From Nanobdellota archaeon (GTDB taxonomy: Archaea; Nanobdellota; Nanobdellia; Parvarchaeales; Parvarchaeaceae): DNA of 64,000 nt. Position 1 is the stretch's first letter. Every line of letters starts with the position of its first letter. The stretch lies in assembly GCA_021852265.1 (NCBI GenBank), contig JAJZNV010000016.1, positions 189-64,188 on the forward strand. The letters run 5' to 3'. The notes below the pieces were generated by a model. That model searched no databases, was not told where the DNA came from, and saw only the letters and a program-made list of their open reading frames with translations. Positions 36,753-58,610 of the stretch are shown here, one piece after another. The position numbers and the translations under genes were made by a program.

Positions 36753-39700
36753 ATGTCATTAAATAAATTTACACAAATTAGAAAGTCATTTGGTAAGCGC
36801 TCTCAGTCTGCTCTTGAATACATGATGACCTATGGATGGGCAATAGCAATAATCGTCATAGTTGCTGCGGTACTCTATACTTTCGGAGTGTTCACACCGT
36901 CATCTTCAGCTCAACAAAATACTATAACCGGATTTGGGAATGGTGTAAAGGTTGTTTCGGTGTCTGCAAACGCATCAGACATGGAGTTTTTTATTTTGAA
37001 TGAATATGGTTACGCAATAAATCTTACCCAGGTAAGTGTCTTAAGCGGAAGTAGTGTATCTTCTAGCTTTACATGCATAAACACGTTCTTGCAGGCAAGT
37101 CAGTCCTCCAAGTGTATAGTCAAGGGTTTATCTCTCCAAAATCCGACTACTGCGAAGGTGACTATAACTTTTTCCGTTACACAGGGGTCATTTACACAGG
37201 TGATCTCCTCACAAGGAACGGTCTCGCTTCAGCTTACATCGATTTCAATACCGAGCACGACTTTTACAGAGTCCGGGCTTCCCACAGGTACGAACTGGAG
37301 CGTCAGCTACATAGGATCAAAAGCATATTCGACATCGTCCTCGATTTCCTTTACCTCATTTAGTGGAACGTACTCATTCACCGTCGCATCCTTTTCATCG
37401 ATATCTGCTGGCTGCACAGCCGAATATAATCCATCGCCCGCATCCGGTTCCTTAATCGCCGGCAGTTCGGAAGCCATAGTTTTTACTGCAGTTGCGCCTT
37501 CATGTGTAACTACCTTTACAGAATCTGGGCTTACTTCTGGTGCTCAATGGACAGTTGTGTATGGGGGTTCTTCGAATACTTCTACATCAACAAGCTTAAC
37601 TATAACGACTGGAAGTGGCAATTTTTCATTTTCCGCATCAGCATCTTCATCGCCGTCGCCATCAAGTGGATGCGCGGCACAAAATGCACTTCTCCCCACA
37701 TCAGGATATTTAACTGCAGGGTTGTCAAAATCAGAAACATTTACATCCACAACCCTCTGTACGACCACTTTTGTCGAATCTGGTTTGCCTATTGGTACTA
37801 AGTGGACTGCAGTCTTTAATGGCTCAAGTAACTCATCAACCACAACTACCATAAAGGTTACTACATTCAGCGGCAGTGCGGATTTTACCCCATCACAGCC
37901 GGCAAACTCCTCAAATACTATGACTTCGATTTATACCTCGAATGATACATCAGGCGTGCCGGTGGCTGCAGGTTCTTCTGTTTCGACGGTTTATTATCCT
38001 GCTCTATACTCAAAAAATATATACGTGAGCAGCTTTACTCAACAGGGTGTGCAGGCTATAAACGGAACATCCGGTTCGATATATTTCACGACGGGAATCG
38101 CAAGTGGATGGCCCTATTCTAAATTCCCCGGAGGTGTATCAATCTCCCCGGATGGCAACTACCTTTACGTTATAACACAAAACAGTGCGACCTCTCGTTC
38201 GCAGTGCGAAAACGGTCTTTTTACAATTTCCGCATCAACTGGAACAATCTTAGGATTTGCATGTACACGTGCTATAATAAATTCAGAAAGTGCCCTTTAT
38301 CCATTCACCGCTCCTCCTGCAATGACCCCCAATGGGGAATACGCCATAATCCCTGAATATTCTAACAACTCTGTTTCCATGGTAAATGTATCCTATCATA
38401 ATAGCACTATGTGGGTGCATAGTCTTTTAGGGTTTGCTGGGCCAGTGTACGCTGTCACATCCTTAAATGGGCAGTATGCGTATATCACTAACTTCGGATC
38501 AGATTACGTTTCTGTGATAAGCATGTCCACCTTTAGTCGCATTAAAAACATAACTACTGGAAGCTCACCTGAAGCAATAGCAATAAACCCGAACGGCAAG
38601 TTTGCATACGTTACAGAAGACGGCAGCCATGAGATAGCAGTTATAAACCTCACCTCTAATACTGACATAGCAAATATAAGCATAGGCATGACATCTGGTC
38701 CTATTGCAGTGACTCCAGATGGGAAATTCGCGTATGTAGGTGGTCAAAGCCTCTATATAATTGCGGTCATAAACCTTAGTTCGAATTCGGATATGACAAA
38801 TATAAGTGTGCCGAGTCCATCACGCATGCTAGCGATAACTCCGAATGGCAAGTATGTATATTCTACAGATTCTAACGTTAATACCGCAGTAGCCATAAGT
38901 ACAGCATCAAACTCGGTTTCTGCGACAATAACCATTGGGAATAATCCGGATGGTTTGGCCATTACTCCAGACAGCAAATACGTTTATATCGCAAACTATG
39001 GCAATGCATCCTTATCTGTAATAAATACATCCTCTAACGTCGTTTTTAAGACTATGTTTGGTATGGGTATTACTCCCAGAGTATTGACAGCCACAAACGC
39101 TGGGGCTTATGTAGCCAGCTTTTATAACTCTTATATCTCATACATAAGCGCCAATACCTTCTCTGCAACAGACGCAATGTCGGTAGGAACCTCGAATAAT
39201 CTTAATAATTACGCTTCTATGTATAATCCGAGCAATAACATGGTAAGCTTGCCGAACAATAAATTCCTATACTTGTTAAGCAACCCTATGAGTGCAATAT
39301 ACGCCTACAACTTGACGACAAATAAATTTTTGTATGCGATGGACACCCCGGGAAATCCCGCGTGGGTTAGCACCTCAGTGGACAGCAAATATATGTATTC
39401 CATTAGTTCTAACTTTGGAGGGCCATTCTATATAGATAATTCGACAAGCGGGGCTTTTGTAAAAGCAATATCCGGATTTAATACGCCCTCTTCGATAGCA
39501 GTTGCGAATTCAAGTAAATATATTTTGTTATCTAGTCCCGGTGGACTATTTTTGATAAATGGTTCCACAACGCTTCCGACATATAAGGGAGAACTTCCGA
39601 TAATCGGAGAGGATAGCCTGCTTTCTCCAGATCATAAAGTATTATACACCTTCTCCGGATATGGTTTTGGGACTTATCAAGCTCTATCAGTGATAAATGT

Positions 39701-41306
39701 TTCGTCTGGACAGCAACTGAGTTACTTCAATCTCGCAAATCTGAGCAGCCCCTCTTATTATAATACCCCTGCGTATCCATCGCTATCTTCAGATGGAAAA
39801 GAACTTTGTATACCTGAGACGACCTCAAATGCACTTACTCTAATAAACACCTCAAACTTTAATTCACTGCGTTTGATCGCATCTATTGCATTAAGTGAGA
39901 GTAACCCAGTTTCATGTGTGTTTACTCCAAATAACAAATATGTGCTAGTTTCAGATGTTGGCTCAAACTTTATGACGGTCATAAATCTGTCCGGCGGAAG
40001 CATAACTACAAAGACTCTACCTTTGGGAGTAGGCGGCGAAGGTGGGGTTGCAGTGTCACCAGTTGGAAATTATGCATTTGTAGAAGGCTATGGTGATCAT
40101 AATTTAACAGTAATAAACACAACTACTATGCAAGAAATCAAGAATATAAGCACTGGACAAAGCTGGAATCTTGGTTACTTGCCACAGCAAATAATAGTGT
40201 CCCCAAACGGAAGGTATGTTTATGTCGCGGCTTTCTCTAATCCTTATATAACTGAGTTCAATGTATCCTCTCTATCTTATGTTACAAATATTTATACCGG
40301 CGCGGGTAACAATGTGCCAGCTATGATAATGTCAAATAATGGTAAGTATATCTATGCCTCTGACAATAATTATTATTTCCAGGGGACAAGGGAGGATCTG
40401 GCTGCGATAAATATCTCAAATGGTGCATTCACTATACTTGGTAGGACATATACCACAGTTATAAATGGTTACCCTTCAGTCGCACTGTCTGAATCAAATG
40501 ATAGCAAGTATCTCTATGCAGATTACCAGAGCAGTGCAAATGGGTCTATCTCAATCATAAACGTGTCATCCGTAATTCCGACGACAGTCAAAAATCTAGT
40601 AGATGCAGGTAATTTCTCCCAGATGGCTAATGCTGTCTGGAAAACAGCATACGTCACTGGATATTCAGGAAATGTTCTTGATACAATTAATACGACGGGG
40701 GCAACTTTATCATCGTTTTACGGGATAGGTATAAATCCTAAAAACGTCATTTTTTCGAACAATAATAAATATGCCTATGTTGTAAGCGGGAGTGGCGGAT
40801 TTAACACCCTTGCTATAGTAAACATGACAAAACTGGTGAATAATCTTTCGGTTCCATTCTCTGCCATTATTAAGGGTATACCAATAGGCGGAATCGGTAA
40901 TCCCGTAGAAACACTTACTCCAGACGGCCGCTACTTAATAATTTCGGCCGGCAAATACGTCCTTATAATGGATACTGCGACAGATTCAATAGTAAAGAAC
41001 ATAAGCGCTTCTGGTCTATTCCTAAACTATCAGATGTACGCTACTAACAAATTTGCTTATTTAGCGCCATCTTCTGGCTCGGTTATACCTGTAGTAAACC
41101 TTACGTCTCTAAGTATCTATAAGAACATAACTGATAATGGCGGACCATATTATCTGGCAATGTCTCCGGATAATAATCTGTTATATGCGGTTAATTCTGC
41201 TTCTAATAATACTCTATTGATAATAAATACTACTACAAATGAGGTAGTGGGAAACGTATATGGTTATTTCTCTCCGAACCAGGTCTCAAATTTAGTGCAC
41301 ATCTGA
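36753..41306 (+). CDS. giant (1517 aa) class III signal peptide / pilin-module protein with ESGLP..W repeats and multiple YVTN-type beta-propellers
   Basis: The N-terminus KRSQSALEYMMTYGWAIAIIVIVAAVLY matches the archaeal class III signal motif (Q-x-S/A-x-E...L). The pilin-size module carries C-x12-C-x-V. Three modules of about 85 aa start (T)TF(T/V)ESGL. About 1,100 aa of 40-residue blades follow (e.g. SPEAIAINPNGKFAYVTEDGSHEIAVINLTSNT). Confidence 0.7.
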   Translation: MSLNKFTQIRKSFGKRSQSALEYMMTYGWAIAIIVIVAAVLYTFGVFTPSSSAQQNTITGFGNGVKVVSVSANASDMEFFILNEYGYAINLTQVSVLSGSSVSSSFTCINTFLQASQSSKCIVKGLSLQNPTTAKVTITFSVTQGSFTQVISSQGTVSLQLTSISIPSTTFTESGLPTGTNWSVSYIGSKAYSTSSSISFTSFSGTYSFTVASFSSISAGCTAEYNPSPASGSLIAGSSEAIVFTAVAPSCVTTFTESGLTSGAQWTVVYGGSSNTSTSTSLTITTGSGNFSFSASASSSPSPSSGCAAQNALLPTSGYLTAGLSKSETFTSTTLCTTTFVESGLPIGTKWTAVFNGSSNSSTTTTIKVTTFSGSADFTPSQPANSSNTMTSIYTSNDTSGVPVAAGSSVSTVYYPALYSKNIYVSSFTQQGVQAINGTSGSIYFTTGIASGWPYSKFPGGVSISPDGNYLYVITQNSATSRSQCENGLFTISASTGTILGFACTRAIINSESALYPFTAPPAMTPNGEYAIIPEYSNNSVSMVNVSYHNSTMWVHSLLGFAGPVYAVTSLNGQYAYITNFGSDYVSVISMSTFSRIKNITTGSSPEAIAINPNGKFAYVTEDGSHEIAVINLTSNTDIANISIGMTSGPIAVTPDGKFAYVGGQSLYIIAVINLSSNSDMTNISVPSPSRMLAITPNGKYVYSTDSNVNTAVAISTASNSVSATITIGNNPDGLAITPDSKYVYIANYGNASLSVINTSSNVVFKTMFGMGITPRVLTATNAGAYVASFYNSYISYISANTFSATDAMSVGTSNNLNNYASMYNPSNNMVSLPNNKFLYLLSNPMSAIYAYNLTTNKFLYAMDTPGNPAWVSTSVDSKYMYSISSNFGGPFYIDNSTSGAFVKAISGFNTPSSIAVANSSKYILLSSPGGLFLINGSTTLPTYKGELPIIGEDSLLSPDHKVLYTFSGYGFGTYQALSVINVSSGQQLSYFNLANLSSPSYYNTPAYPSLSSDGKELCIPETTSNALTLINTSNFNSLRLIASIALSESNPVSCVFTPNNKYVLVSDVGSNFMTVINLSGGSITTKTLPLGVGGEGGVAVSPVGNYAFVEGYGDHNLTVINTTTMQEIKNISTGQSWNLGYLPQQIIVSPNGRYVYVAAFSNPYITEFNVSSLSYVTNIYTGAGNNVPAMIMSNNGKYIYASDNNYYFQGTREDLAAINISNGAFTILGRTYTTVINGYPSVALSESNDSKYLYADYQSSANGSISIINVSSVIPTTVKNLVDAGNFSQMANAVWKTAYVTGYSGNVLDTINTTGATLSSFYGIGINPKNVIFSNNNKYAYVVSGSGGFNTLAIVNMTKLVNNLSVPFSAIIKGIPIGGIGNPVETLTPDGRYLIISAGKYVLIMDTATDSIVKNISASGLFLNYQMYATNKFAYLAPSSGSVIPVVNLTSLSIYKNITDNGGPYYLAMSPDNNLLYAVNSASNNTLLIINTTTNEVVGNVYGYFSPNQVSNLVHI
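37255..38000 (+). repeat. three tandem ~85-aa ESGL(P/T)xGxxW modules (coding repeat)
   Basis: TTFTESGLPTGTNWSVSY..., TTFTESGLTSGAQWTVVY..., TTFVESGLPIGTKWTAVF... Confidence 0.65.
38010..41290 (+). repeat. array of ~40-aa YVTN-type beta-propeller blades (coding repeat)
   Basis: Recurrent pattern (I/V)(A/T)(I/V)(T/S)P(D/N)GK(Y/F)(A/V)Y(V/I)...(S/N)x(I/V)(S/A)VI(N/S). Confidence 0.65.
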
Positions 41307-41430
41307 GTTTTTTTAATAAGTAGATATTCTGGCGTACTGACAATTAGGCTAAAAATCGGAGCCAGAAAGCTTTATATATAAGTGAGTTTCTTATTACTAT
41401 TAAGTAAGTAGTTTTAACGGAGGATTAAAA

Positions 41431-42321
41431 ATGGAAAAATCAGCACAAGCGAAATATCCTGCAGGTAAGCAGGGAACACAACAAGCAGCCAGTACTCCTG
41501 TCGCGAAAAGTTCGAAAGCCTCATTAGATCATCTATTAAGTTCTACCAATTTTCCGGTCTATCAGCGAGCAGCAGCAGTGATAAAGAATTATCAGCAGAT
41601 TATGAATACTTCCGATTTTAACCCGAATGCACTTGGAAAGGTGCTGTACAGTGCTTTGGGAGAAATGGTCGCAGAAGCTCCAAATAAGGACGAGCGGCAA
41701 GACATAACAATTTTGATGGATGCATTACAGAGAAATTTACAGAATAATTCTCTTACAAAAGAAGCTTTTGAGGCGACTGTTGAGCATGCGAGATCATTTA
41801 TGACTCCCTACGCACAGAAAGTAAAGGATTCATTAGAGGAAAGCCATTACAAAAATATGGCCTTGGGCATTCTCCAAAATAAGAAAATGTTTGGGGATTT
41901 ATACTCTAAGTTGTCCATGCACCCTAGTGCAGCAAGAGCAAATCAATTCGGAATAATGTTAACAGATATAGAGGGTTCTATCAAGAAAAACGACCTTTCT
42001 AATATATCTTCATATTACATGAAATTAGTCTCCCCGACTGCAGTAGCGGATTATGTTAAGACTGGAAAGACAAAGGAGGAAGCAACAAAAATCGTTGAAA
42101 CAGGTAAAAAAGCTTACCAGGCGTTGCTATCTTCCCTTAGTGATAGTATGAAAGCAGAACACCAGGCGTTTCTGCACAAGCTAATTGGACAGAGCTATTA
42201 TCAGGCTGCCCAGAAGATAGACGTGGGTTATATAAAGAATGTAATGAGCTCTGCAGATTCAGCGGATATATTAGCACTCATACCGCAGGAAAGGCAAGGA
42301 ATGGGGTATCAGTCAGAATAG
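41431..42321 (+). CDS. hypothetical alpha-helical protein
   Basis: 296-codon ORF with a GGAGG Shine-Dalgarno 8 nt upstream. No recognisable motif or hydrophobic segment. Confidence 0.5.
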   Translation: MEKSAQAKYPAGKQGTQQAASTPVAKSSKASLDHLLSSTNFPVYQRAAAVIKNYQQIMNTSDFNPNALGKVLYSALGEMVAEAPNKDERQDITILMDALQRNLQNNSLTKEAFEATVEHARSFMTPYAQKVKDSLEESHYKNMALGILQNKKMFGDLYSKLSMHPSAARANQFGIMLTDIEGSIKKNDLSNISSYYMKLVSPTAVADYVKTGKTKEEATKIVETGKKAYQALLSSLSDSMKAEHQAFLHKLIGQSYYQAAQKIDVGYIKNVMSSADSADILALIPQERQGMGYQSE

Positions 42322-42343
42322 AATGGCGTTCAATAACTCCCTC

Positions 42344-42384
42344 CTCCCCAATGTAAATTTTAGATTTTTGCTTACATTGGGGAG
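42344..42384 (+). terminator. 13-bp perfect hairpin after the 41431 gene
   Basis: ctccccaatgtaa (42344..42356) pairs with ttacattggggag (42372..42384) around a 15-nt loop. Confidence 0.5.
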
Positions 42385-42487
42385 ATTTTAATTTATAGTT
42401 ACCCGTATACTATTCAGGTGTGGACCTGCGTATTTTTAGAAACTGGGAAAAAACTTTATAAGTGCGCATCCACTTGAGTGTAGTATA

Positions 42488-43294
42488 ATGAAATTTATCG
42501 ATGTGCACACTCATCCATGTTTCAACATCTCTTCATTAAGAGAAACTGCTAATAGGAATGGGATAAATTTCAGTGCGGAAGGATTCTTAACTGAAATGGA
42601 TTCGGTCGGCATCGAATATGCAGTAGCGATAGGCGTTGATACAGAATCTAATAACTTGATACGTGACATCAGTAAAAAGATAGATAGAATAATCCCGGTT
42701 CTAGGTGTAAACCTTGAGAAAAAGAGCAATTTTTCCACTTATTTTGAATTTGCAAAGAAAGCGCTTAGCAAAAAAGAATTCAGAGGAATAAAGATATATC
42801 TTGGGTATGATCACGTTGCAGCTAACTCAAAGTTTTTGGAACCACTTTATCGGCTTGCTGAAAAGTATAACATTCCCGTGATATTCCACACGGGCGATAC
42901 ATTTAAGCCGATGCGCAAGTCTCAGTTTCTGAAATACTGTCATCCTCTTATTATAGATGAAGTAGCAGTAACTCATCCAGGGATAAAATTCGTTATCGCA
43001 CACTCGGGGAATCCCTGGACCGAGGATGCAGCAGAGGTAGTATACAAGAATGATAATTGTTATGCGGATATCTCTGGATGGTTTTTGCAAACTATAGACC
43101 AGAAGAGTATGAAGTTCATGCGAGAAAAATTGGAAAAGATGGTGGCATTTGCAGGCAACGAAAAAATAATGTTTGGTAGTGACTGGCCTCTTCTGAAGAT
43201 GAAACCATACACTAATTTCATTATGAGCTCCTTGCGAATGGATGACCTACAAAAAATAGCATATAAGAATGCCAAGAAGTTCTGGAGCATCTGA
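42488..43294 (+). CDS. metal-dependent amidohydrolase (TIM-barrel, amidohydrolase-2-like)
   Basis: FIDVHTHP, IFHTGD, IAHSGNPW and MFGSDWP. Confidence 0.8.
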   Translation: MKFIDVHTHPCFNISSLRETANRNGINFSAEGFLTEMDSVGIEYAVAIGVDTESNNLIRDISKKIDRIIPVLGVNLEKKSNFSTYFEFAKKALSKKEFRGIKIYLGYDHVAANSKFLEPLYRLAEKYNIPVIFHTGDTFKPMRKSQFLKYCHPLIIDEVAVTHPGIKFVIAHSGNPWTEDAAEVVYKNDNCYADISGWFLQTIDQKSMKFMREKLEKMVAFAGNEKIMFGSDWPLLKMKPYTNFIMSSLRMDDLQKIAYKNAKKFWSI

Positions 43295-43365
43295 CACAGT
43301 ATTTAGTTGCAGAAGAGCCGAATTTTGAACAAAGATTTAAATATTCGAGTCTCATTCAATAACGA

Positions 43366-43638
43366 ATGGAAAATGACACCATCTTCGTAGGCAAAAAACC
43401 TATAATGGCTTACGTAGTTGCTGTGTTGACCCATGTTAATTCGGGTCATGATTTCGTTTTACTGAAGGCCAGAGGATCTATGATAAGTAAAGCTGTTGAT
43501 ATATCTCAGATAATCAAAAGAAAGTTTTCAAAAGATCTCAAGGTGGGTAACATCGAGATAGGTACTGAGGAAATAATCAGCGAAGGCGATGTTAAAAAGA
43601 GGAATGTATCTTATATATCAATAGAGATGAAAAGATAA
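43366..43638 (+). CDS. albA: Alba DNA/RNA-binding protein
   Basis: IFVGKKPIMAYVVAVLT...LKARGSMISKAVDISQIIKRKF is the typical Alba pattern. TATA tttaaata (43336..43343) lies with 22 nt between it and the ATG. Confidence 0.9.
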   Translation: MENDTIFVGKKPIMAYVVAVLTHVNSGHDFVLLKARGSMISKAVDISQIIKRKFSKDLKVGNIEIGTEEIISEGDVKKRNVSYISIEMKR

Positions 43639-43640
43639 CT

Positions 43641-44332: not shown

Positions 44333-45469
44333 ATGGTAAATATAGAAAACTTTCAGAACAGTAGCTTCTCGGGACAGGGCGTGAAGAATTTGAATTTCGA
44401 TGCAAGCAGGACGAAAGAGTTCGATAAGTCTCTTGAGGAAATGATAGCCTCAAAAAGAACAAGTATAAAAGTCGTTGGCGTCGGAGGTTCTGGAAATAAT
44501 ACTATCCGAAGGATGTTTGAAATCGGCATAAAAGGGGCCGAGCTGATAGCGATAAACACAGACGCAGCCGATCTTCTTACAACACCCGCCGATAAAAAGA
44601 TACTTATTGGAAGGGAGCTTACAAATGGTCTTGGGGCAGGTGCGGATCCCTCCGTTGGTGAAGCAGCAGCTAGAGAACAGGAGCAAGAGATAAAAGAAGT
44701 TCTGCAGGGTGCGGATATGGTGTTTATATGCAGTGGAATGGGCGGTGGGACAGGTACTGGTGCCGCGCCAGTAGTCGCGCAGGTCGCCAAAAAACTGAAT
44801 GCGCTTACAATCGCAGTTGTCACCGTGCCATTCAAAGCGGAAGGCAGACGAAGGATGAATCAGGCTTTAGGCGGACTCGATAAGCTCCGTATGGCAGTAG
44901 ATACCGCAATCACAATACCAAATGAAAAGCTTCTTGCTATAGCTCCGGGTCTTCCTATTGCGATTGCACTCAAGATAGCGGATGATGTCTTAACGAACGC
45001 AGTTAAGGGTATAACTGAGTTGATAACCAAACCAGGCCTGATAAATGTTGATTTTGCAGATGTAAAGAGGATAATGGCAAACGGCGGCATAGCGCTGATA
45101 GGCAGCGGCGAAAGTGATGCAAAGGATAAAAAATTAGAGACAGTAGTTGAAAAGATTCTAAACAATCCGCTCATAGACGTGGATGTCTCTACCGCAAAGG
45201 GCATGCTTATAGATGTAAGTGGCGGCCCATCACTGACCTTAGAAGAGGCTAACAAGGTAGTTGATTTGATAAATCAGAAACTTCCAGATGATATAAATAT
45301 AATTTGGGGAGCGCACATTTTCCCAGATCTTAAAAATACTATGAAGGTCCTAGCGATAATAACCGGCGTTACTTCTCGGCAGATAACTGGTAAGTCTATA
45401 GCGGAAGAGAAAGAGCTTAAAGATAAGAAGGAAGTTGAAGAGGAACTCGGTATAACATTCTTGAGTTAA
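44333..45469 (+). CDS. ftsZ: cell division GTPase FtsZ (paralog 2)
   Basis: [24 protein letters not shown] and NTD. TATA ttttaata (44304..44311) lies 22 nt upstream. Confidence 0.95.
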
Positions 45470-49777: not shown

Positions 49778-49785
49778 TTTAAATT
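49778..49785 (+). promoter_or_regulatory. TATA box (TTTAAATT) of giant pilin-like gene 2
   Basis: Ends 22 nt upstream of the ATG at 49807. Confidence 0.5.
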
Positions 49786-49806: not shown

Positions 49807-52800
49807 ATGGTTAGGCGCGGCAATGTGCATCCAAAACACAGAAATCAAGCTGCCGTTGATTTTCTTATAAGCTGGGGCTGGGTTATCGCTATTGTGGTCG
49901 TAGCAATGCTTGTATTATTCGACTTAGGCGTATTTAATACTCCTCAGCAGGCTACACTGATAAATGGTTTTCAAAGCGTGCAGGTGGAAGACGCTGGAGT
50001 AAACGGCTCCCTGGCAGTGTTTCAGCTTAATAATCAATTTGGTAGAGACATCAATATAGACAGCATAATGATAACTTCGAATGGAAATGTATTCTCTCCG
50101 TCGACAGTCCAGTGTACCGTCTCACAGTTAACTGCGGGACAATCTGCAGTGTGCAGGGTGCCCTTGTCCCTAAACACGTCAAATTATGAGATCTCAGTCG
50201 CGATAAGATATTCACCATCAACATCAAATACGATATTCTTCTCCAATGGCACAGTCTCTGGCAGATTATCAAATGGTGTTATAAACTTAAACAACGCAAA
50301 TTATTATTTTAGGGAATTAGCTCTGCCAGACGGAGCCACATGGTCAGTCACTCTTGGAGGACTGACTAAAAATGCCACCGTCTCATCCAGTACCGGCGAC
50401 GTAATCTCATTCTCAGCGGCATTCGGGGCTTATAATTATAACGTCAGTAATGTCACATTTAGCGGATGTTCCTCAATTTACCCTTATCCTCTCAATGGTA
50501 TTATAACAGGGGGCGTCACTAAAGATATAGCGTATAATGGCACTTGTCCCACTACATTTACAGAAACAGGATTGGGTCAGTACATTTATGCAACGAACCG
50601 TTATAATAATACTATAGAGGTTATTGATACTGCCACCGACTCAGTTGTACGCAACATAACCTCACAGTCACAACCTGCCGAATTAGCATTAAGCGCAGAT
50701 GACCAATATCTTTATGCTACTAATCTAGACAATGGCAGCGTACAAAAATTCTCAGTGTCTACCGGTGCACTCGTTTCAACGTTTAGTGGTATTAAATCTC
50801 CGTTTATGCTTTCAATCGGCTCAAATGGAGATCTGTATACAATGAATTACTTTGGAAAGTTAGATGTGGTAAATTCGACAACCGGGACAATAATTGTAGC
50901 GAATATGTCCATTGGTGGTATTGGCGCAAATGTTGCAGCGGTACCCAGCAAGGACATCGTGTATGCCACTAATGCAACTTATAACCTTGTATTGTTCGGG
51001 CATAGTTATTGTACTGGTGATGTAGTATATGCCCTAAATAGCACGACTAATACAATAATAACCTCTATTCCTGTTGGAACATGCCCATATGGGGTAGCTG
51101 TTGCACCGAATGGTACATATGCATACGTCGCAAATTTTGTCAGTAATACGACCTCAGTAATAAGCACCGCTACAAACACAGTCGTCGCTACAATAAACGT
51201 TGGTAAGAATCCAAGTGCAGTTGCAGTATCTCCAAATTCCAAATATGTTTATGTCGGAAACCAAGCCAGTAACACAGTCTCAGTAATAAGCACTGCTACG
51301 AATACTGTCATTGCTACGATAAATCTTGGTTCGGGGAAGTCTCCATCTATAGGGGCGTCAATAACAGTAACTCCCGATGGGAGATATGTTTATGTGGCAG
51401 ATCAGCCGGTTGGAAACAATGGTGCAAGTATATCGATAATATCAACTGCGACAAATTCAGTGATTGCCAATTCTAGCCAACAAGACTTTAGTATTATTTC
51501 CGCAGCAACCATAAGTTCTAACCCCTATACATGGAACTGGAGTGTAACTTATGGGGGAAAAACAAAGTCATCTACAAATCAGAGTATAACCTTTAATAGT
51601 AATCTTGGGAATAAGTCTTATTCCGCTATTTCTTCTAAATATATATCGACTTCCTCTATAGATTGTGATGTCTTATACTCACCGAATGTGACTGCGGGAG
51701 AATTTTTGGCAGGATCATCACTGCTAGTCGGTTTTAATTCATCTACTTCATGTACGACGACATTTGTATCCCCCGGGCGCAATTACAACTCTTCACTATA
51801 TGGAACTTCATGGTGGGTTAAATATGGTACTACGAACATTTCTAACTATGTGGGAAAGAATTTTACTTTTACTTCCGCTCAAGGGGGACAAACCATTTAT
51901 GGTAGAATGATTCCATACGTCATACAGGCTACGGGAGGGTATGGCATGAATAACTGTGTGATGGTGCCACCTCTTTATCAAACTGCAGGTTTTACATTCA
52001 ATTCCACATGGTCATGTGACACCTCCTTTTATGAGGATAATCTGCCATCCGACTATAATTGGTCCGTTAGGTATGCTGGCACGGTCCAATGGTCAAAGAC
52101 ACGCTATATAAACTTTACCACCGGCACCGGTGTTTACAATAGAATTTACACGGTTATGTCGAATTCTTCAATCAACGCCTCTGGATTCCATTGTACGACT
52201 GTATATGAGCCGTCTCCAAATTCATCCGGACCACTGACAGCCGGTGACTTTCATCCGCCCGGTGCATCTTACGGAGGTCCCGTCGTAGACTATGTTAGTT
52301 CGACTTCATGCGATACAGCAATAACGACGTTTAATGAAATAGGGATGTTTTCAGGGGCTTCATGGTCAGTATATTATAATGGCACTTTAAACAGCTCTTC
52401 TGCACCGAATAGTATAACATTCTCAAGGGCAGCAGGTAATGTATATTCCTTTTCAGTCCCGGCTCCATCAAACTCGTCTGCAGGGTGTATTACATCTTAC
52501 TCTGCGAACGTTACTTCGGGTAGCCTTACGAGCGGTTCCACTAAGACCATAGGGTTTACTCATTCCACTTCATGTACAACGAAATTTATAGTGGCAGGCC
52601 TGCCACCCAATACTGTATGGCCAGTTACGTTTGACGGAGTAACGAAATATCCCATCGGTTCGTCAGTTACTTTCACTACAACCTCTGGATCGTATTCTTA
52701 TACAGAGGGACCTGTCTATTATCCTCCCGATTGCGTTTACTCACCCGACCTTTCTTCCGGAACGTTAACAGCAGGATCTAATTATTCTGTAACTTACTCT

Positions 52801-54096
52801 GCACCTTCAGGACCAAATTGTCTAATATTTGTTGCAAATTATGGTAGTAACAGTGTATCTGAGATAGACACGGCGACTAATTCATTAGTAGCTACAATGG
52901 GCACGGGTGAGAGTCCTGTGGATATGGCCCTGAATATGGTAAATGATACAATAAATATTGCAGATTACGGACCCTCCGGTGGAACTTGTTTTGTAGGCAA
53001 CTCTGAGGTCTGTTTGATAAACGTAACCACGCGGAAGATAATCACAGGAATCTCCACACCGGGGGTGCGGCAACAGTTCGGAGGAGGACCCACGATTGCA
53101 CTATCCCCTAATGAACAATACACGTACGTTATTGGGCAAGGCCTGAGCTCGCCATTCTATGGATACTTATATATCATAAACAATAAGAATGACCAGCTCG
53201 TTTCAACAATTAATCTAGGTGACAATCCGCTGCCGAGTGGCATAGTGGTTACGCCGAATGGAGAATATGTGTACGTTGTAAATAGCTATGCCCAGTCATT
53301 AATAAAGATAGATACTATAACAAATTCAATAGTTTCTACATTAAATGGAGATTGTGGTACTGGTGGAACAGTGTTGTGTGATCCAAGTGGCATGGCAATG
53401 TCACCTAACGGCAAGTATATCTATATCGCCAATGCCGGAGACAATCATATTACTGTTATAGATACTTCTTCAGGCAGGGACATAAAGAATATTAGTTTGG
53501 GAGCGGGAGTTATACACACTGCTACTGGAATAGCGCTATCGCCAAATGGTTTACTCTATACATCTAATTACTGGGGCAATACGACTGAGATTATAAATGC
53601 AACCTCATATTCAGTAGTTTCTACTGTTAATCTAGGATACGGTACGGAACCAATGGGTATAACAGCACCGACCGCAATCAATGGACAACTCTATGTTTAT
53701 GTTGCATTGTCTAAAGTAGGGAAAGTGGCGGTTTTATCTGCATCCACAAATAGCGTAATAGAGAACATAACCGTAGGCGCTAACCCAGAAGGAATCTACA
53801 GCGTTCCTGAGTTTACAACCTCCTTTGTTGAATCTGGACTCGCATCTGGACTAACATGGTCAGTAACGTATGATAATATAAAATCTAGCTCTGCAAGTGC
53901 AGCTATTGGCATAACGGTTCCAGAGGGAACGTACTACTTTAGTATACCGAATGTGCAGGGTAATTTGGTATGTAATCACCAGCTAGGAGTAGGGACTCAG
54001 TACTATTACGCCCCTTCTCCCGCCTCTGGAAGTGCAGTTGGAGGCAGCACCGAGAACGTCACATTTACAATATACTCTAAAACAGTAAGTTGCTGA
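49807..54096 (+). CDS. giant (1429 aa) class III signal / pilin-module protein with ESGL-type modules and two YVTN beta-propeller regions
   Basis: The N-terminus is HRNQAAVDFLISWGWVIAIVVVAMLVLF. The pilin module carries CTVSQLTAGQSAVCRV. Canonical YVTN blades are present (PYGVAVAPNGTYAYVANFVSNTTSVISTATNTVVATINVGKNPSAVAVSPNSKYVYVGNQASNTVSVISTATNTVIATINLG). The final module is TTSFVESGLASGLTWSVTY. Confidence 0.7.
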   Translation: MVRRGNVHPKHRNQAAVDFLISWGWVIAIVVVAMLVLFDLGVFNTPQQATLINGFQSVQVEDAGVNGSLAVFQLNNQFGRDINIDSIMITSNGNVFSPSTVQCTVSQLTAGQSAVCRVPLSLNTSNYEISVAIRYSPSTSNTIFFSNGTVSGRLSNGVINLNNANYYFRELALPDGATWSVTLGGLTKNATVSSSTGDVISFSAAFGAYNYNVSNVTFSGCSSIYPYPLNGIITGGVTKDIAYNGTCPTTFTETGLGQYIYATNRYNNTIEVIDTATDSVVRNITSQSQPAELALSADDQYLYATNLDNGSVQKFSVSTGALVSTFSGIKSPFMLSIGSNGDLYTMNYFGKLDVVNSTTGTIIVANMSIGGIGANVAAVPSKDIVYATNATYNLVLFGHSYCTGDVVYALNSTTNTIITSIPVGTCPYGVAVAPNGTYAYVANFVSNTTSVISTATNTVVATINVGKNPSAVAVSPNSKYVYVGNQASNTVSVISTATNTVIATINLGSGKSPSIGASITVTPDGRYVYVADQPVGNNGASISIISTATNSVIANSSQQDFSIISAATISSNPYTWNWSVTYGGKTKSSTNQSITFNSNLGNKSYSAISSKYISTSSIDCDVLYSPNVTAGEFLAGSSLLVGFNSSTSCTTTFVSPGRNYNSSLYGTSWWVKYGTTNISNYVGKNFTFTSAQGGQTIYGRMIPYVIQATGGYGMNNCVMVPPLYQTAGFTFNSTWSCDTSFYEDNLPSDYNWSVRYAGTVQWSKTRYINFTTGTGVYNRIYTVMSNSSINASGFHCTTVYEPSPNSSGPLTAGDFHPPGASYGGPVVDYVSSTSCDTAITTFNEIGMFSGASWSVYYNGTLNSSSAPNSITFSRAAGNVYSFSVPAPSNSSAGCITSYSANVTSGSLTSGSTKTIGFTHSTSCTTKFIVAGLPPNTVWPVTFDGVTKYPIGSSVTFTTTSGSYSYTEGPVYYPPDCVYSPDLSSGTLTAGSNYSVTYSAPSGPNCLIFVANYGSNSVSEIDTATNSLVATMGTGESPVDMALNMVNDTINIADYGPSGGTCFVGNSEVCLINVTTRKIITGISTPGVRQQFGGGPTIALSPNEQYTYVIGQGLSSPFYGYLYIINNKNDQLVSTINLGDNPLPSGIVVTPNGEYVYVVNSYAQSLIKIDTITNSIVSTLNGDCGTGGTVLCDPSGMAMSPNGKYIYIANAGDNHITVIDTSSGRDIKNISLGAGVIHTATGIALSPNGLLYTSNYWGNTTEIINATSYSVVSTVNLGYGTEPMGITAPTAINGQLYVYVALSKVGKVAVLSASTNSVIENITVGANPEGIYSVPEFTTSFVESGLASGLTWSVTYDNIKSSSASAAIGITVPEGTYYFSIPNVQGNLVCNHQLGVGTQYYYAPSPASGSAVGGSTENVTFTIYSKTVSC
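50575..51475 (+). repeat. YVTN-type propeller blade array 1 of gene 49807
   Basis: Tandem units of about 120 nt, with near-identical stretches such as tcagtaataagcac(c/t)gctac(a/g)aa(c/t)ac. Confidence 0.65.
51520..52820 (+). repeat. block of ESGL-related ~85-100-aa modules in gene 49807
   Basis: NWSVTYGGKTKSS..., SWWVKYGTTN..., NWSVRYAGTV..., ASWSVYYNGTLNSS..., VWPVTFDGVTKYP..., each ending in a Cys-containing ...S(T/S)SC(T/D)T motif. Confidence 0.55.
52822..53800 (+). repeat. YVTN-type propeller blade array 2 of gene 49807
   Basis: LIFVANYGSNSVSEIDTATNSLVATMGTGESP ... PSGIVVTPNGEYVYVVNSYAQSLIKIDTITNSIVSTL ... PSGMAMSPNGKYIYIANAGDNHITVIDTSSG. Confidence 0.65.
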
Positions 54097-54120
54097 AATA
54101 CATATCTTTTTGCGATTTGA

Positions 54121-54128
54121 TTTAAATG
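54121..54128 (+). promoter_or_regulatory. TATA box (TTTAAATG) of giant pilin-like gene 3
   Basis: Ends 22 nt upstream of the ATG at 54150. Confidence 0.5.
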
Positions 54129-54149
54129 CCTATTAAAGTATAAAAACGA

Positions 54150-57100
54150 ATGTCGGTTATAATTGCTATGTATCCAAATGGACAGTTGGGAATAAATATC
54201 GTTCTATGGGCGGCAGTTATAGTCTTCATAATAGTCGCACTGTTTTTTTTGGGAATAATACCCTTTCCTCCTTCTGCGGCATCGCATCAACAGAGTGCTA
54301 CCAATATCATCCAATTAGGTGCCGCAAAGGCAAATGCACAAACTCTGCAGTTCTCGCTTCAGAATATGAAAGCATTATCGGTTACTCCTCTTCATTTTAT
54401 AATATCGATAGATGGTCAGAACTATTCAAATGTAGCGTGTCAAAAGGCGACAATAGCACCGTTAGGGACTACTCAATGTCAAGTAAGCGGCAATTTTTCG
54501 GGCAAAACTTCTATCTCAGTATTCCTCAAAGTTTTCTTTACAATCAATTCGACTGGCAGCACATATAATTCAACTGCATCATTGATCGTTCCAGTACAGC
54601 AGAGTTCTATCCAGTCACTACAGAATAATACCAGTACGGTTTTTACAGCATTCATGGAATCTGGGTTGCCTGCCAGCACTCAGTGGACAATGGTTTTTAA
54701 TGGACAGTTTAATACTTCCTTAGGTAACCAAATTAATTTTATTTCGTCCCCAGGTAACTACACATTTAATATATCAAGCATACAGGTTGGGAACTGCGTA
54801 TACTACGCTTCCCTTTCCTCTGGTAAGATAGCTGCCGGATTAGTAAATTATGTATCATTTTCATCACAATGCTCCTCCTCTGGCAGTGGAAATACAACCG
54901 TTACGACCGCATTTACTGAATCCGGTCTGCCTTCTGGCTTGAGCTGGAGAGTAACATTTGCATCGGTGATAAATTCTTCAAAAACCAATGCAATAACATT
55001 TTCTACTTCAGCAGGTTTATACCAATATTCAGTAAGTCCATCCAGCAATAGCACTCTTAATTGTACTACCACGTATTCGCCTTCCCCGTCCGGCGGAAAT
55101 ATAAACGCTGGTACGACCAATTCAATAACATTCAGCGCGAGCAATGCGTGTAATCTGGTGATTACTACCTTTGTAGAATCTGGCTTAGCCTCAAATGCGA
55201 AGTGGACAGTTACCTATGATAATATTAATAATGACACCTACACGTCTACCTCAAACAAAATAACGTTCTCGACGATAAAGGGAACATTTGCATATTCGGT
55301 TCCGTCGGTATCAAATTCTTCCGCGTCCTGTACAACAACGTATACACCATTGCCGGCATCTGGGAACTTACAAGCAGGTTTGACCCAAACAGTCGCATTT
55401 ACTTCTTCAACGTTATGTTCTGGAGTTTATGGTATAGTTTATAGCGTTCCTATAACCGTCGCAAATCTGCAGGATAGCCCTACACCTTCGCCTTTCCAGG
55501 TGAATGTAACGATAGACAGTGCAGCATACAGCTCATATGAGGCATCAAATCTCCAGAATATAGAATTTTTCTATTCAAATGGTACAATAATACCTTCCTG
55601 GTTAGAATCTGGGAACTCAAATACTGCAACTAAAACGATTTATTGGTTAAGAATCAATGGTGGGATACCGGCGAATACTGCAATCGCGGTTTACATTGGG
55701 TTCGGTTCTTTGACTACGAACTTCTTAAGTACCAGGGCAACGGGAGAAGCGCCACAATTATCTTCTGTATACGGGGAATATGATAATGGTGCAAACGTCT
55801 TTAATTTCTATGATAATTTCGCTGGAACCGCCATAAATACGAATAAGTGGACATCGACAGGTTCGATAACAAATACCGCAATCTCAACTATAAAAGTTAC
55901 CTATGCTCCACAGGATATCACATACGATTCAATGAATGGAAATGTCTATGTTTCTAATTCTTATCCGTATAGTGTGAATCCTCTGTTTGACATTGTTAGC
56001 GTAATAAATTCCTCTTCCAATAACGTGATAAAGAACATAAGTGTAAACGGTGAGCCATTTGGAATAGCCTATAATCCAGTGAACCACTGTATATATGTCG
56101 GACTAGCATCTGATTCACCCTCTGTAAGCGTTATATCTACCATTACAAACACTATAATAAAAAATATAACAGGTATAGGGCTTCAGCCTTCTGGAATTGC
56201 ATATGATCCCGCAAATGGAGATATGTATGTTGTAAAAGGACTTTCGAACAACGTCGCTATCATTGACTCCTCTACTAATACGGTTATAAAAACTATCAAC
56301 GTCTCAAACGGTCCTTCCGGAGTAGCTTATAATCCTGCAAATAATGATATCTATGTAGCAGATTCTGCCGCAAATACCATAAGTGTTATCTCTTCCTCAT
56401 CCAATACAGTAATAAAGAACATAACTGCGGTAAGCGAACCTAAGGAATTAACATATGATCCTGTAAATAAAGATATGTATGTTTCCAATGCATACACAAA
56501 TACCGTCGGTGTAATAAACTCTTCTAACAGGGTAATAAAGAATATAACACTCGGGACGTTTAAGGCAGGCTCCTTGTTGGGGATAACTTATGATTCAGCG
56601 AATGGTGCAGTTTACGTTGCAAATACGTATGCGAATACTACAATGATAATAAATACGACCTCCAACTTACTAGTAAGCTCTGTAAAGGTTGGTGTCGAAC
56701 CTTCAGGTGTAGCATACAATAATGTCAGTGGTAACGTGTATGTGGCAAATACGGGCTCCAATACGGTAAGCGTTATACCCTCCTCACAGATACACGTGAA
56801 TAATGGACTAACAGTCCTGCCTGCAGGTATAGGAACCAACGTTCCGCCGATATACAGTAATAGTGTCTTTGCAAATGGCATTATAGACTTTTATGGTAAA
56901 ATCCCCGCTGGTGCATGCGGTTCCCTCGGAAATCCGGGTTGCCCATTAAAGAAATACATCTACGCGTTTGCGGGGGTCGCTTCACCTTCGAATCCGAATT
57001 CGAATATGTCCGGGATAGGTGAATTTTCTGGAGTTTACGGCATAAGAATCTCTAATCTTTCAAAGAAGTTTGGGGACCAGGCTATAGCGATACCTGGCTT

Positions 57101-58610
57101 TGTTCCCGGGACAAATCAGGTGTACTCCATGGATCTTCCTTACACCTCTTATCCTTCTTTACCCGGTATATCTGTCCAGGTAAATTATGGTAGTGTACTT
57201 ATGAATTCGACTCTCGGTCGTTTGCCCACTTTACCACAACCTATTATGATAACTAATCAAAATAGTACTAATATAAGCATTGGTCCGATAGACTGGATAA
57301 GATTTAGGGCATACCCTCCGAACGGTATAGCACCCATCATTGTCGTTGGGGCAATAAAGACAGCAGCAGTGACGACGTTTGTGGAATCCGGCTTGCCACA
57401 GCAGTTAATTTCAGGTTTGAACAGTACATCACTGAATTGGTCAATAACCTACGACGGAGTTACTAAATTACCCCTGCGTTATAATGTGTGTTTCGGTGGA
57501 CACTGTTCTGTATGGTATACGGAAAAAATCAATTTCTCTACGCTTTCTGGAGCATTTAGCTATTCCGCGTCCATACCTTACAATTCCTCAAATGGCTGCA
57601 CTACATTTTATTCTCCGAATCCGTCTTCTGGATCAGCGGCTACCGGCAACGTACAGACAATAACTTTTTCAGGAGTCACATCCTGCAATCAGGTATTTGT
57701 AACCTACTCTAACGGCGTTAGCATAATAAATGGCTCTTCAAACAAAGTGATTAGAAATATAACGGCATTGCCGAAGTCTCTCGGTTATCTCGCGGTGACT
57801 CCCAACGGGAAGGAGTTGTACGTCGGCAGTTCAGCTGCCTCATCAGTTTCTGTAATAAACCTTTCATCTTACAAGGTAATAAAAAATATCTCCGCAGCTT
57901 TAAACGTGCAGGGGTTAGCAGTGACCCCGAATGGTAAATATGTATACATAGTTAATAGCAACAATGATTCTGTTCAGATTATAAGTACCTCTACAAATTC
58001 CGTTGTCGCGGCTATAAGTGTACCATGTTCACCACAGAATATTGCAATAACACCTAATGGGCGATATGCATATGTGATTAACTGTATAGGTTCGGACGGC
58101 TCCAATGTCTCAATTATAGACACGGCATCAAATACCATAATAAAGAGCACGGGTAATCTATCCGCTCTAGTCGGAGAACCCTTTTATCCAACTGGAATAA
58201 CGATGACCCCTAACGGAAAATATGCTTATATCAGCACGGAAAGCCAATACATCCCAATTTTGAATGCATCCTCAGGTGCATTTTTAGGCTACATAAATAC
58301 TAGCATTGGCAATTTCGGAACATGCGATGCAAACAGCATGGTGATAACCCCAGATAGCCGGTATGGTTACGTTACCTGTGGCCCCGAGACCGTGGCCAAG
58401 ATTAATTTATCCACGGGCACATTTATTAAAAATATAACTGTCGGCGACCCTCAAGGACCTATGGCTATATCACAAAACGGTAAATATATTTATGTCACTA
58501 GCTACTCTCCCAATTTAATCTCTGTTATAGCCACTTCAACTGATTCGGTAGTGTCAACTATAAATCTGGGAGCCGCACCTGAGTATATCGCCGCTGGATT
58601 TCGGCCCTAA
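54150..58610 (+). CDS. giant (1486 aa) pilin-module protein with ESGLP modules, DUF2341-like + ConA/LamG-like region and two YVTN propellers
   Basis: The N-terminus PNGQLGINIVLWAAVIVFIIVALFFLG is a divergent class III-like signal. The pilin module carries CQKATIAPLGTTQCQV. ESGL modules include FMESGLPASTQWTMVF, AFTESGLPSGLSWRVTF and TFVESGLASNAKWTVTY. A DUF2341-like segment reads ...IEFFYSNGTIIPSWLESGNSNTATKTIYWLRINGGIPANTAIAVYIGFG...FYDNFAGTAINTNKWT. Propeller blades include PSGIAYDPANGDMYVV, PSGVAYNPANNDIYVADSAANTISVISS and, later, LAVTPNGKYVYIVNSNNDSVQIISTSTNSVVAAI. Confidence 0.65.
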   Translation: MSVIIAMYPNGQLGINIVLWAAVIVFIIVALFFLGIIPFPPSAASHQQSATNIIQLGAAKANAQTLQFSLQNMKALSVTPLHFIISIDGQNYSNVACQKATIAPLGTTQCQVSGNFSGKTSISVFLKVFFTINSTGSTYNSTASLIVPVQQSSIQSLQNNTSTVFTAFMESGLPASTQWTMVFNGQFNTSLGNQINFISSPGNYTFNISSIQVGNCVYYASLSSGKIAAGLVNYVSFSSQCSSSGSGNTTVTTAFTESGLPSGLSWRVTFASVINSSKTNAITFSTSAGLYQYSVSPSSNSTLNCTTTYSPSPSGGNINAGTTNSITFSASNACNLVITTFVESGLASNAKWTVTYDNINNDTYTSTSNKITFSTIKGTFAYSVPSVSNSSASCTTTYTPLPASGNLQAGLTQTVAFTSSTLCSGVYGIVYSVPITVANLQDSPTPSPFQVNVTIDSAAYSSYEASNLQNIEFFYSNGTIIPSWLESGNSNTATKTIYWLRINGGIPANTAIAVYIGFGSLTTNFLSTRATGEAPQLSSVYGEYDNGANVFNFYDNFAGTAINTNKWTSTGSITNTAISTIKVTYAPQDITYDSMNGNVYVSNSYPYSVNPLFDIVSVINSSSNNVIKNISVNGEPFGIAYNPVNHCIYVGLASDSPSVSVISTITNTIIKNITGIGLQPSGIAYDPANGDMYVVKGLSNNVAIIDSSTNTVIKTINVSNGPSGVAYNPANNDIYVADSAANTISVISSSSNTVIKNITAVSEPKELTYDPVNKDMYVSNAYTNTVGVINSSNRVIKNITLGTFKAGSLLGITYDSANGAVYVANTYANTTMIINTTSNLLVSSVKVGVEPSGVAYNNVSGNVYVANTGSNTVSVIPSSQIHVNNGLTVLPAGIGTNVPPIYSNSVFANGIIDFYGKIPAGACGSLGNPGCPLKKYIYAFAGVASPSNPNSNMSGIGEFSGVYGIRISNLSKKFGDQAIAIPGFVPGTNQVYSMDLPYTSYPSLPGISVQVNYGSVLMNSTLGRLPTLPQPIMITNQNSTNISIGPIDWIRFRAYPPNGIAPIIVVGAIKTAAVTTFVESGLPQQLISGLNSTSLNWSITYDGVTKLPLRYNVCFGGHCSVWYTEKINFSTLSGAFSYSASIPYNSSNGCTTFYSPNPSSGSAATGNVQTITFSGVTSCNQVFVTYSNGVSIINGSSNKVIRNITALPKSLGYLAVTPNGKELYVGSSAASSVSVINLSSYKVIKNISAALNVQGLAVTPNGKYVYIVNSNNDSVQIISTSTNSVVAAISVPCSPQNIAITPNGRYAYVINCIGSDGSNVSIIDTASNTIIKSTGNLSALVGEPFYPTGITMTPNGKYAYISTESQYIPILNASSGAFLGYINTSIGNFGTCDANSMVITPDSRYGYVTCGPETVAKINLSTGTFIKNITVGDPQGPMAISQNGKYIYVTSYSPNLISVIATSTDSVVSTINLGAAPEYIAAGFRP
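54640..55420 (+). repeat. three tandem ESGLP..W modules in gene 54150
   Basis: See the motifs listed for the CDS. Each module ends with a Cys-containing (S/T)(S/N)xC. Confidence 0.6.
55890..56790 (+). repeat. YVTN-type propeller array 1 of gene 54150
   Basis: Six or more blades with the pattern P(S/F)G(I/V)(A/T)Y(D/N)(P/S)xNGxxYV(A/S/V)(N/D)...N(T/N)V(S/A/G)VI(N/S/D)(S/T)(S/T)(S/T)N. Confidence 0.6.
57690..58600 (+). repeat. YVTN-type propeller array 2 of gene 54150
   Basis: LAVTPNGKELYVGSSAASSVSVINLSSYKVIKNI, LAVTPNGKYVYIVNSNNDSVQIISTSTNSVVAAI, IAITPNGRYAYVINC..., ITMTPNGKYAYIST..., MVITPDSRYGYVTC..., MAISQNGKYIYVTSYSPNLISVIATSTDSVVSTI. Confidence 0.6.

Follow-up and report, generated by a model that had tools for sequence, protein, structure and literature searches.

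Four genes on a 64,000-nucleotide stretch of DNA from a Nanobdellota archaeon of the Parvarchaeaceae are best explained as members of a large, modular family of type IV pilin-like surface proteins that is specific to Parvarchaeales. The stretch, hereafter the window, covers positions 189 to 64,188 of the forward strand of contig JAJZNV010000016.1 (assembly GCA_021852265.1). Three of the genes, A, B, and C, encode very large proteins and had been singled out in a preliminary description of this DNA; the list of open reading frames (ORFs) and their translations confirms the positions and N termini given there. The fourth, D, is smaller, has a canonical signal, and was absent from that count. Coordinates of all four genes and of their domains are collected in Table 1.

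Sequence comparison and structure modeling support the reading of the N-terminal ~165 amino acids (aa) as a pilin-type unit. As described earlier, the hydrophobic helix is followed in A, B, and C by a globular module of about 110 aa carrying a C-x12-C hairpin, and the three modules are mutually homologous (A-B, E 2e-21; A-C, E 8e-8; B-C, E 2e-5). The view that this is a complete pilin-sized unit also holds. Residues 1 to 165 of A can be aligned over their full length with numerous stand-alone proteins of ~155 aa from Parvarchaeota metagenome-assembled genomes (MAGs), and the boundary of the module in A coincides with the end of these proteins. The family consensus reads M-x-(K/R)-(A/G/S)↓QSALEYMMTYGWAILIIVIVAAVLYSLGIF-PSSS, where the arrow marks the predicted cleavage site, and continues into a variable beta domain ending in GTV-G. 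In the family alignment, conservation reaches 90% or more at 25 positions of the helix, against an average identity of ~37% in the globular parts; a simple anchor would presumably not need such conservation in the carrier helix. Measured against the 35-position helix consensus, A matches at 30 positions, D at 32, and B at 12.

The canonical signal is an Epd/Flp-type site, (K/R)(A/G/S)↓QSALEY, in which a small residue at -1 precedes Gln+1 and position +5 is Glu. It is present in A, where the leader ends in MSLNKFTQIRKSFGKRS↓Q, and in D, where it ends in SSRHS↓Q; both place a basic leader and a small -1 residue before the hydrophobic stretch. In relatives, the -1 position is occupied by Ala, Gly, or Ser in turn. 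Tyr at +6, a trait of Flp pilins, is found in A and D together with Gln+1 and Glu+5, whereas B has Gln+1 and Asp+5 and C has Gln+1 and Asn+5. The family motif fits the rule published for EppA substrates, which concerns the end of the leader, Gln+1, and Glu+5 (PMC3875500). The class III prepilin-type N termini that had been claimed for all three large proteins are thus canonical in A, as they are in D, and degenerate in B and C.

An AlphaFold2 model of the A module (mean predicted local distance difference test score, 78.7) consists of a helix at residues 20 to 43 followed by a nine-stranded sandwich. The top two Foldseek matches of this model in the PDB are FlaF/FlaG structures (5tug and 6pbk; E 4e-4 and 7e-4). 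The next ranks are held by non-pilin sandwiches (GGA/COPI appendage and antibody domains), and the type IV pilin of Pyrobaculum calidifontis (8fk7) is ninth with an E value of 9e-3; template modeling (TM) scores lie between 0.3 and 0.5. The same pilin is the best match when the sequence profile is compared with the PDB (E 0.04 over 110 columns). The N-terminal module has a single NCBIfam match, to UpsA, a pilin of Sulfolobus (E 0.006), at 16.8 bits against a cutoff of 130. Pfam gave no match on aa 1 to 170 and none on aa 1 to 50 even at E values up to 10. Because the curated Pfam and NCBIfam models did not match the N termini, we relied on the family alignment and on structure. Each of the fold and sequence matches is weak alone; together, they point weakly to the archaeal type IV pilin superfamily.

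The family is large. The module profile, A1, matches 6,944 cluster representatives (clusters at 50% identity), 2,518 of them at E values below 1e-10. Among the best 150 of the 6,944, most are 330 to 560 aa long with the module at the N terminus, and several reach 700 to 1,517 aa. We also collected 76 related loci from about 25 related MAGs (1.47 Mb), which contain 99 ORFs with the motif, 83 of them complete. Six of the complete ORFs are shorter than 200 aa, 68 fall between 300 and 800 aa, and nine are longer than 800 aa (up to 1,465). Cargo is carried by 77 of the 83, and 16 combine the ESGLP and YVTN modules described below; a form of ~540 aa with one ESGLP module and one propeller recurs, and other members carry LamG-like or DUF2341 plus concanavalin A (ConA)-like cargo. 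Stand-alone members of ~155 aa occur in related genomes. Tandem arrays of family genes are common; at three of the related loci (L057, L050, and L045), four to five consecutive genes all begin with the QSALEYMMTYGW module and mostly encode 370 to 500 aa. A pilin module with cargo is therefore the norm in this lineage, and A, B, and C are among its largest members rather than unique.

The three large proteins were originally presented as paralogs. This is borne out for their N-terminal modules; pairwise alignment shows that the order of the shared modules differs among them, so that the proteins are mosaics and not colinear paralogs, and D adds a fourth member within the window. Seventeen contigs from several metagenomes carry the exact sequence of A, and strain variants differ at no more than 10 residues, indicating that these are real conserved genes. 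We looked for hypervariable regions among the strain variants. Variation was low and not clearly localized, and there is therefore no evidence of diversifying selection.

Behind the pilin-like module, the cargo of A, B, and C is built largely from two elements. The first is a module of ~85 aa named after its ESGLP motif. A hidden Markov model (HMM) finds three copies in A, six clear copies plus one weak copy and one aborted start in B, and four in C, in line with the three to about seven copies per protein counted earlier. The AlphaFold2 model of the module (score, 92) is a small all-beta domain with a conserved Cys pair. ESGLP has no Pfam model, no sequence relative in the PDB (best match HYDIN, E 0.006, which we take as chance), and no fold match in the PDB (best E 0.79); a word-indexed protein search returned only four matches. 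The module may resemble repeats of thermopsin-like proteins. We infer that the ESGLP modules form a rigid stalk. At aa 249 to 258 of B (window 50551-50580, + strand), an ESGLP start, TTFTETGLGQ, passes directly into the first blade of a propeller, resembling a scar left by recombination where two domains meet.

The second element is the YVTN-type beta-propeller. The repeat model TIGR02276 matches A, B, and C with E values of 2e-30, 2e-68, and 6e-63 (104, 226, and 208 bits), far above its curated cutoff of 27.85 bits. Mapping with a blade HMM built from the three proteins places two propellers in B and two in C; in A, the HMM detects 20 or more blades across aa 421 to 1503 (~1,090 aa), which would correspond to about three propellers. 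The one to several propellers per protein reported earlier are thus recovered. By PDB sequence search, the closest structure is the surface-layer YVTN protein of Methanosarcina mazei (1l0q, E 7e-41). We considered propellers of redox enzymes and rejected them: scores of the NosZ-type and lactonase equivalog models are far under cutoff, and the CxxCH motif is absent. Only the generic YVTN repeat model passes its cutoff among the NCBIfam propeller models. The propellers and the lectin-like unit of C would serve as ligand-binding heads. In C, aa 435 to 1074 (window 55452-57371, + strand) appear to represent a nested insertion, the DUF2341/ConA-like unit being uninterrupted in homologs and split by a propeller here.

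Cysteines in A, B, and C occur in close pairs, each protein has 43 to 47 N-x-S/T sequons, and charged residues make up 7 to 8%; composition, Cys pairs, and sequons are together typical of what would be expected for extracellular proteins of acidophiles. The C termini are polar and lack a hydrophobic stretch that could act as an anchor. Pfam and NCBIfam searches and inspection of the C termini revealed no S-layer domain, C-terminal anchor, or sorting signal, and no solute-binding-protein family is among the Pfam and NCBIfam matches. PilY1/Neisseria_PilC Pfam models do not match the three proteins at E values up to 0.1.

The same species also encodes type IV pilus machinery. Assembly GCA_023473925.1 carries, on contig JAMCYR010000022.1, an operon of one T2SSE and two T2SSF genes (a TadA/FlaI-type ATPase and two platform genes) and, on contig JAMCYR010000020.1, a copy of A that differs by three substitutions (99.8% identical). 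ARMAN-5 has genes for a T2SSE ATPase and a T2SSF platform protein at a distance of 7 kb from a gene for a pilin module with four ESGLP modules; the orthologue of this ATPase (P0305) is the one encoded by the operon of GCA_023473925.1. An ATPase with two T2SSF genes is the arrangement of Epd or "system 1" pili (10.64898/2026.04.22.720090). FlaK (K07991) is listed for 41 of 44 MAGs in a Parvarchaeales/Jingweiarchaeales data set (PMC10134863, supplement).

From the sequences and models, we give slightly better than an even chance to a role of A, B, C, and D as modular pilin-like adhesins, either minor or at the tip. A FlaK/EppA-type peptidase would process them before they are handed over to the TadA-like ATPase and its double TadC platform, and their propeller or lectin-like heads would sit on an ESGLP stalk. 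The protein would be inserted into the membrane, and the peptidase would cut off the leader before Gln+1. Through the conserved helix, the TadA/FlaI-type ATPase and a pair of TadC-like platform proteins would next take up the protein and deliver it to one of three positions: the end of a thin pilus, sparse sites along its length, or a short pseudopilus formed by the stand-alone ~155-aa members. Held off the cell, the propellers would bind host cells (Thermoplasmatales) or other surfaces. Cleavage, filament assembly, the role of the stalk, adhesion, and a ligand are all predictions of this reading. It retains the pilus-tip or pilus-displayed adhesins hypothesized at the outset, with a pilin-type carrier and machinery in the same species in its favor and the degenerate signals of B and C against it.

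Several observations weigh against pilin-like adhesins. A and D have Ser at -1 instead of Gly or Ala, and the signal of B is degenerate, with Asn at -1 and Asp at +5. The leader of C is without a basic residue (a strain variant reads MYPKG↓Q in place of MYPNG↓Q), and its +5 residue is Asn and not acidic. At threshold, the curated pilin and class III signal HMMs of Pfam (including PF04021, Class_IIIsignal/DUF361) and NCBIfam all fail to match, and the check with such profiles proposed earlier thus came out negative. The companion check by structure prediction did return the expected helix and sandwich, but the Foldseek matches are modest and beta-sandwiches resemble many folds. Pfam and NCBIfam annotation of the window reveals no pilus assembly genes. 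A scan of the 76 related loci for Walker-A/T2SSE motifs found pilus genes adjoining family members only in ARMAN-5, and there are none in the surroundings of the stand-alone member P0043. The earlier call for a genome search was answered for the assembly genes by the A-encoding assembly GCA_023473925.1; for the prepilin peptidase, scanning 1.47 Mb of related loci for motifs gave no candidate, which is not conclusive. Finally, a cargo of ~1,350 aa tops any modular pilin we found in the literature, the largest in PMC8179133 being 860 aa.

Display in a surface coat or in the manner of a bindosome, with no long filament involved, is a less probable explanation, though a real contender. Here, the class III-type signal would serve only for export and processing, and the helix would anchor dozens of different cargo proteins, either in the membrane or within short pseudopili, forming a glycoprotein surface and binding layer on a cell that possibly lacks a classical S-layer. 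The great size of the family and the prevalence of cargo resemble general display more than the minor pilins of one pilus, and the genes lie among housekeeping genes outside pilus loci. Sulfolobus sugar-binding proteins with class III signals, treated in a 2026 survey (10.64898/2026.04.22.720090), provide a precedent, and the propellers resemble an archaeal surface-layer protein. However, the whole helix is near-invariant across paralogs, including Glu+5/Tyr+6 and a Gly-Trp pair, which suggests filament-like helix-helix packing. Related genomes also have potential filament subunits in the stand-alone ~155-aa members, and an operon for the ATPase and platform has been kept in a genome of ~1 Mb.

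It is improbable that the proteins are plain, uncleaved type II signal-anchor proteins whose pilin likeness reflects only shared ancestry of the first domain and whose propellers are perhaps lactonase-type enzymes. The failure of curated class III signal models, the lack of canonical -2/-1/+5 residues in B and C, and the presence of lactonase-type families among the Pfam and NCBIfam propeller matches are compatible with this. Yet a plain anchor leaves the conserved small residue, the Gln, and the following Glu+5 unexplained, and the enzyme reading meets equivalog scores far under cutoff, with only the generic YVTN model passing, and a lack of CxxCH or other cofactor motifs. Least plausible is release of soluble binding proteins or enzymes into a biofilm matrix after processing, which would suit the missing C-terminal anchor and the acid-stable, low-charge, Ser/Thr/Asn-rich composition but is opposed by the predicted cleavage, which retains the hydrophobic helix, so that the mature protein would remain bound to the membrane or to a filament, and by the lack of an evident second cleavage site.

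Positions 49807-62031 of the window form a run of four surface-protein genes, B, C, E, and D. Gene E is without a match in Pfam and NCBIfam scans; positions 47 to 152 of the A1 profile match aa 183 to 296 of the open frame that begins 13 codons 5' of the ATG at 58856 (E 1e-6). The neighbors of A, B, and C are housekeeping genes, encoding NAD synthase, PRPP synthase, NAD kinase, FtsZ, SecE, S6e, eIF2-gamma, and a PIN protein. A search with the heptamer TTTAWAT located the TATA boxes previously noted 22 to 23 nucleotides (nt) upstream of each ATG. This spacing is the general leaderless-promoter layout of the genome, being found at 17 of 40 plus-strand genes.

Table 1. Genes A to E and their parts, numbered from the first position of the window
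Feature	Coordinates	Strand	Description and evidence
Gene A	36753..41306	+	1517 aa; pilin-like module, 3 ESGLP, ~3 YVTN propellers; near-identical NCBI entry MCL5101218.1, "hypothetical protein"
A, TATA-like TTTATAT	36723..36729	+	Ends 23 nt before the ATG; consensus match only
A aa 1-165, pilin-like module	36753..37247	+	Leader 1-17 (...GKRS↓QSALEY), hydrophobic helix, beta-sandwich, C108-x12-C121 hairpin
A aa 169-424, three tandem ESGLP	37257..38024	+	HMM domains, E 1e-29 to 8e-33
A aa 425-1517, YVTN-blade region	38025..41303	+	TIGR02276 E 2e-30; Pfam Lactonase in 3 stretches; blade map
Gene B	49807..54096	+	1429 aa; divergent pilin-like module, ESGLP, propeller, 5 ESGLP, propeller, ESGLP; near-identical NCBI entry "beta-propeller fold lactonase family protein"
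B, TATA-like TTTAAAT	49778..49784	+	Ends 22 nt before the ATG; consensus match only
B aa 1-165, pilin-like module	49807..50301	+	...HRN↓QAAVDF; Gln+1, Asp+5, Asn at -1; A1 profile E 2.5e-40
B aa 167-248, ESGLP 1	50305..50550	+	HMM; aborted second start follows at aa 249-258
B aa 257-555, YVTN propeller 1	50575..51471	+	Blade map, 6 blades detected; TIGR02276 in 9 stretches of whole B
B aa 565-1005, ESGLP run	51499..52821	+	HMM: 565-654, 660-728 (weak), 739-827, 840-926, 925-1005
B aa 1003-1324, YVTN propeller 2	52813..53778	+	Blade map, 7 blades detected
B aa 1338-1428, C-terminal ESGLP	53818..54090	+	HMM, E 1e-28
Gene C	54150..58610	+	1486 aa; degenerate pilin-like module, 3 ESGLP, DUF2341/ConA-like unit with inserted propeller, ESGLP, propeller; near-identical NCBI entry "DUF2341 domain-containing protein"
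C, TATA-like TTTAAAT	54121..54127	+	Ends 22 nt before the ATG; consensus match only
C aa 1-160, pilin-like module	54150..54629	+	M(SVIIAM)YPNG↓QLGINIV; Gln+1, Asn+5; A1 profile E 6e-26
C aa 166-427, three ESGLP	54645..55430	+	HMM, E 6e-29 to 9e-35
C aa 435-589, DUF2341 and start of ConA/LamG-like unit	55452..55916	+	Pfam DUF2341 E 1.4e-7; blastp, C 435-568 = 178-309 at related locus L054
C aa 590-876, 7-blade YVTN propeller inside DUF2341/ConA-like unit	55917..56777	+	Blade map; alignment split around propeller
C aa 877-1074, rest of ConA-like unit, ending WIRFRAYPPNGIAP	56778..57371	+	blastp, C 1039-1069 = unit end at related loci L054, L064, L041
C aa 1075-1182, ESGLP 4	57372..57695	+	HMM; 20-aa insertion
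C aa 1181-1474, 7-blade YVTN propeller 2	57690..58571	+	Blade map; best PDB sequence match 1l0q, E 7e-41
Gene E	58856..60172	+	438 aa, between C and D; plain N-terminal transmembrane helix (not class III-like) and internal pilin-like beta-sandwich
Gene D	60766..62031	+	421 aa; ...SRHS↓QSALEYMMTYGW pilin-like module and Laminin_G_3 (E 3.5e-12); A1 profile E 1e-35; TATA-like box 23 nt upstream

Other parts of the window are of separate interest. At 4567-8548 (+ strand), an ORF for a 118-aa pilin-like protein (MDTFKKA↓QGLPINTIILIAIG...) is followed by two ORFs without matches, a KaiC-like ATPase, a fusion of a KaiC-like domain with an Arf/Ras-type small GTPase, and a Roadblock/LC7 protein. The GTPase and Roadblock pair is, we presume, reminiscent of MglA/MglB. 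KaiC-family ATPases have been proposed as pilus regulators (PMC4858521). The ORF at 22183-25644 (+ strand) encodes 1,153 aa that start with a hydrophobic helix; neither Pfam nor NCBIfam gave a match, pilin, ESGLP, and YVTN modules are absent, and the product may be another large surface protein. Two candidate FtsZ genes lie in this 64-kb window of a very small genome, at 20900-21982 and 44333-45469 (+ strand); the latter has Tubulin and FtsZ_C Pfam matches, and the former was judged from its N-terminal sequence only. The GC content of the window is ~40% and falls to 0.327 at 62001-64000, against ~0.40 elsewhere.

The preliminary description regarded the architecture as undescribed and by implication unique, which does not hold in view of the cargo carried throughout the lineage and of published systems. 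Modular pilins, exemplified in Streptococcus sanguinis by PilB (vWA module) and PilC (lectin module), join an N-terminal pilin carrier to non-pilus modules (Raynaud et al. 2021, PMC8179133). More than 1,200 such bacterial proteins in 264 architectures are known, including ConA-like lectin modules and reaching 860 aa, and they are widespread in ultrasmall episymbiotic bacteria of the candidate phyla radiation (CPR) (PMC8179133). The domain maps of A to D likewise have an N-terminal pilin module fused to domains not specific to pilus biology, the defining feature of modular pilins. Further parallels are the ConA-like lectin cargo (in D and C), the proposed display at the tip for adhesion, and the wide distribution of the family in DPANN archaea, as of modular pilins in CPR bacteria. 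Unlike the bacterial proteins, A, B, and C are archaeal, fall outside the bacterial IPR012902 motif, and bear multi-propeller cargo of 1,265 to 1,350 aa, compared with a maximum total length of 860 aa.

Among archaeal systems, the Epd pili of Methanococcus maripaludis share with the present family the Gln+1/Glu+5 signal type of A and D, two TadC-like platform genes beside the ATPase, DUF2341 (in C and many family members), and pilin genes scattered in the genome (PMC4858521; PMC3875500). For the large DUF2341 proteins of Methanococcus-type pilus loci, a function as tip adhesins has been suggested (Makarova et al. 2016, PMC4858521). In contrast to the Epd system, Pfam DUF361/Class_IIIsignal does not match the present family, its cargo, including DUF2341, is fused directly to the pilin domain, and it has a Flp-like Tyr+6 that M. 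maripaludis pilins reportedly lack. Class III signals on large functional archaeal proteins are known from the bindosome and a 2026 survey (10.64898/2026.04.22.720090). These proteins similarly combine a prepilin-type signal and hydrophobic helix with a large extracellular part on a presumed pilus-like base, whereas A, B, and C have a complete pilin beta-sandwich between helix and cargo, and their cargo consists of propellers, lectin-like units, and ESGLP modules rather than ABC-type solute-binding domains.

The PilY1/PilC tip adhesins are also large, contain a beta-propeller, and are assigned a tip location and a role in adhesion, as proposed for A, B, and C. PilY1 is not itself a pilin and docks via minor pilins, and the propellers of A, B, and C are of the YVTN type, without a Pfam match to the PilY1/Neisseria PilC family. 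Similarly, the M. mazei protein 1l0q is an archaeal extracellular protein with a YVTN propeller and small beta domains (PKD), but A, B, and C combine propellers with a pilin-type N terminus and ESGLP modules. Divergent DPANN pilins have been noted (PMC6393860). Our literature search turned up no account of the A-D family, no pilin module bearing YVTN propellers as cargo, and no pilin-like protein in the range of 1,430 to 1,520 aa. The trio is best seen as candidate attachment proteins and not as a new kind of system.

Nonetheless, cargo size in such proteins goes well past the published range, and the modular-pilin idea, familiar from bacteria and frequent in CPR, is carried over to archaea. 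Two domain families without a model, the Parvarchaeales pilin module and ESGLP, are flagged behind current annotations such as "hypothetical," "lactonase family," and "DUF2341." To our knowledge, how DPANN archaea recognize and hold their hosts is largely unknown, and few of them have been cultured. With its conserved carrier and variable binding heads, the family offers abundant, testable candidates for host attachment in DPANN archaea. More tentatively, Parvarchaeales, as ultrasmall episymbionts, may use the type IV pilin as a general-purpose carrier, with many modular pilins per ~1-Mb genome, frequently arrayed in tandem, whose cargo of lectin-like and DUF2341 units, ESGLP stalks, and one to three YVTN propellers would make up a host-recognition repertoire on a Tad/Epd-like pilus. 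If so, A, B, and C would be the largest pilins known to us and direct determinants of host attachment and specificity.

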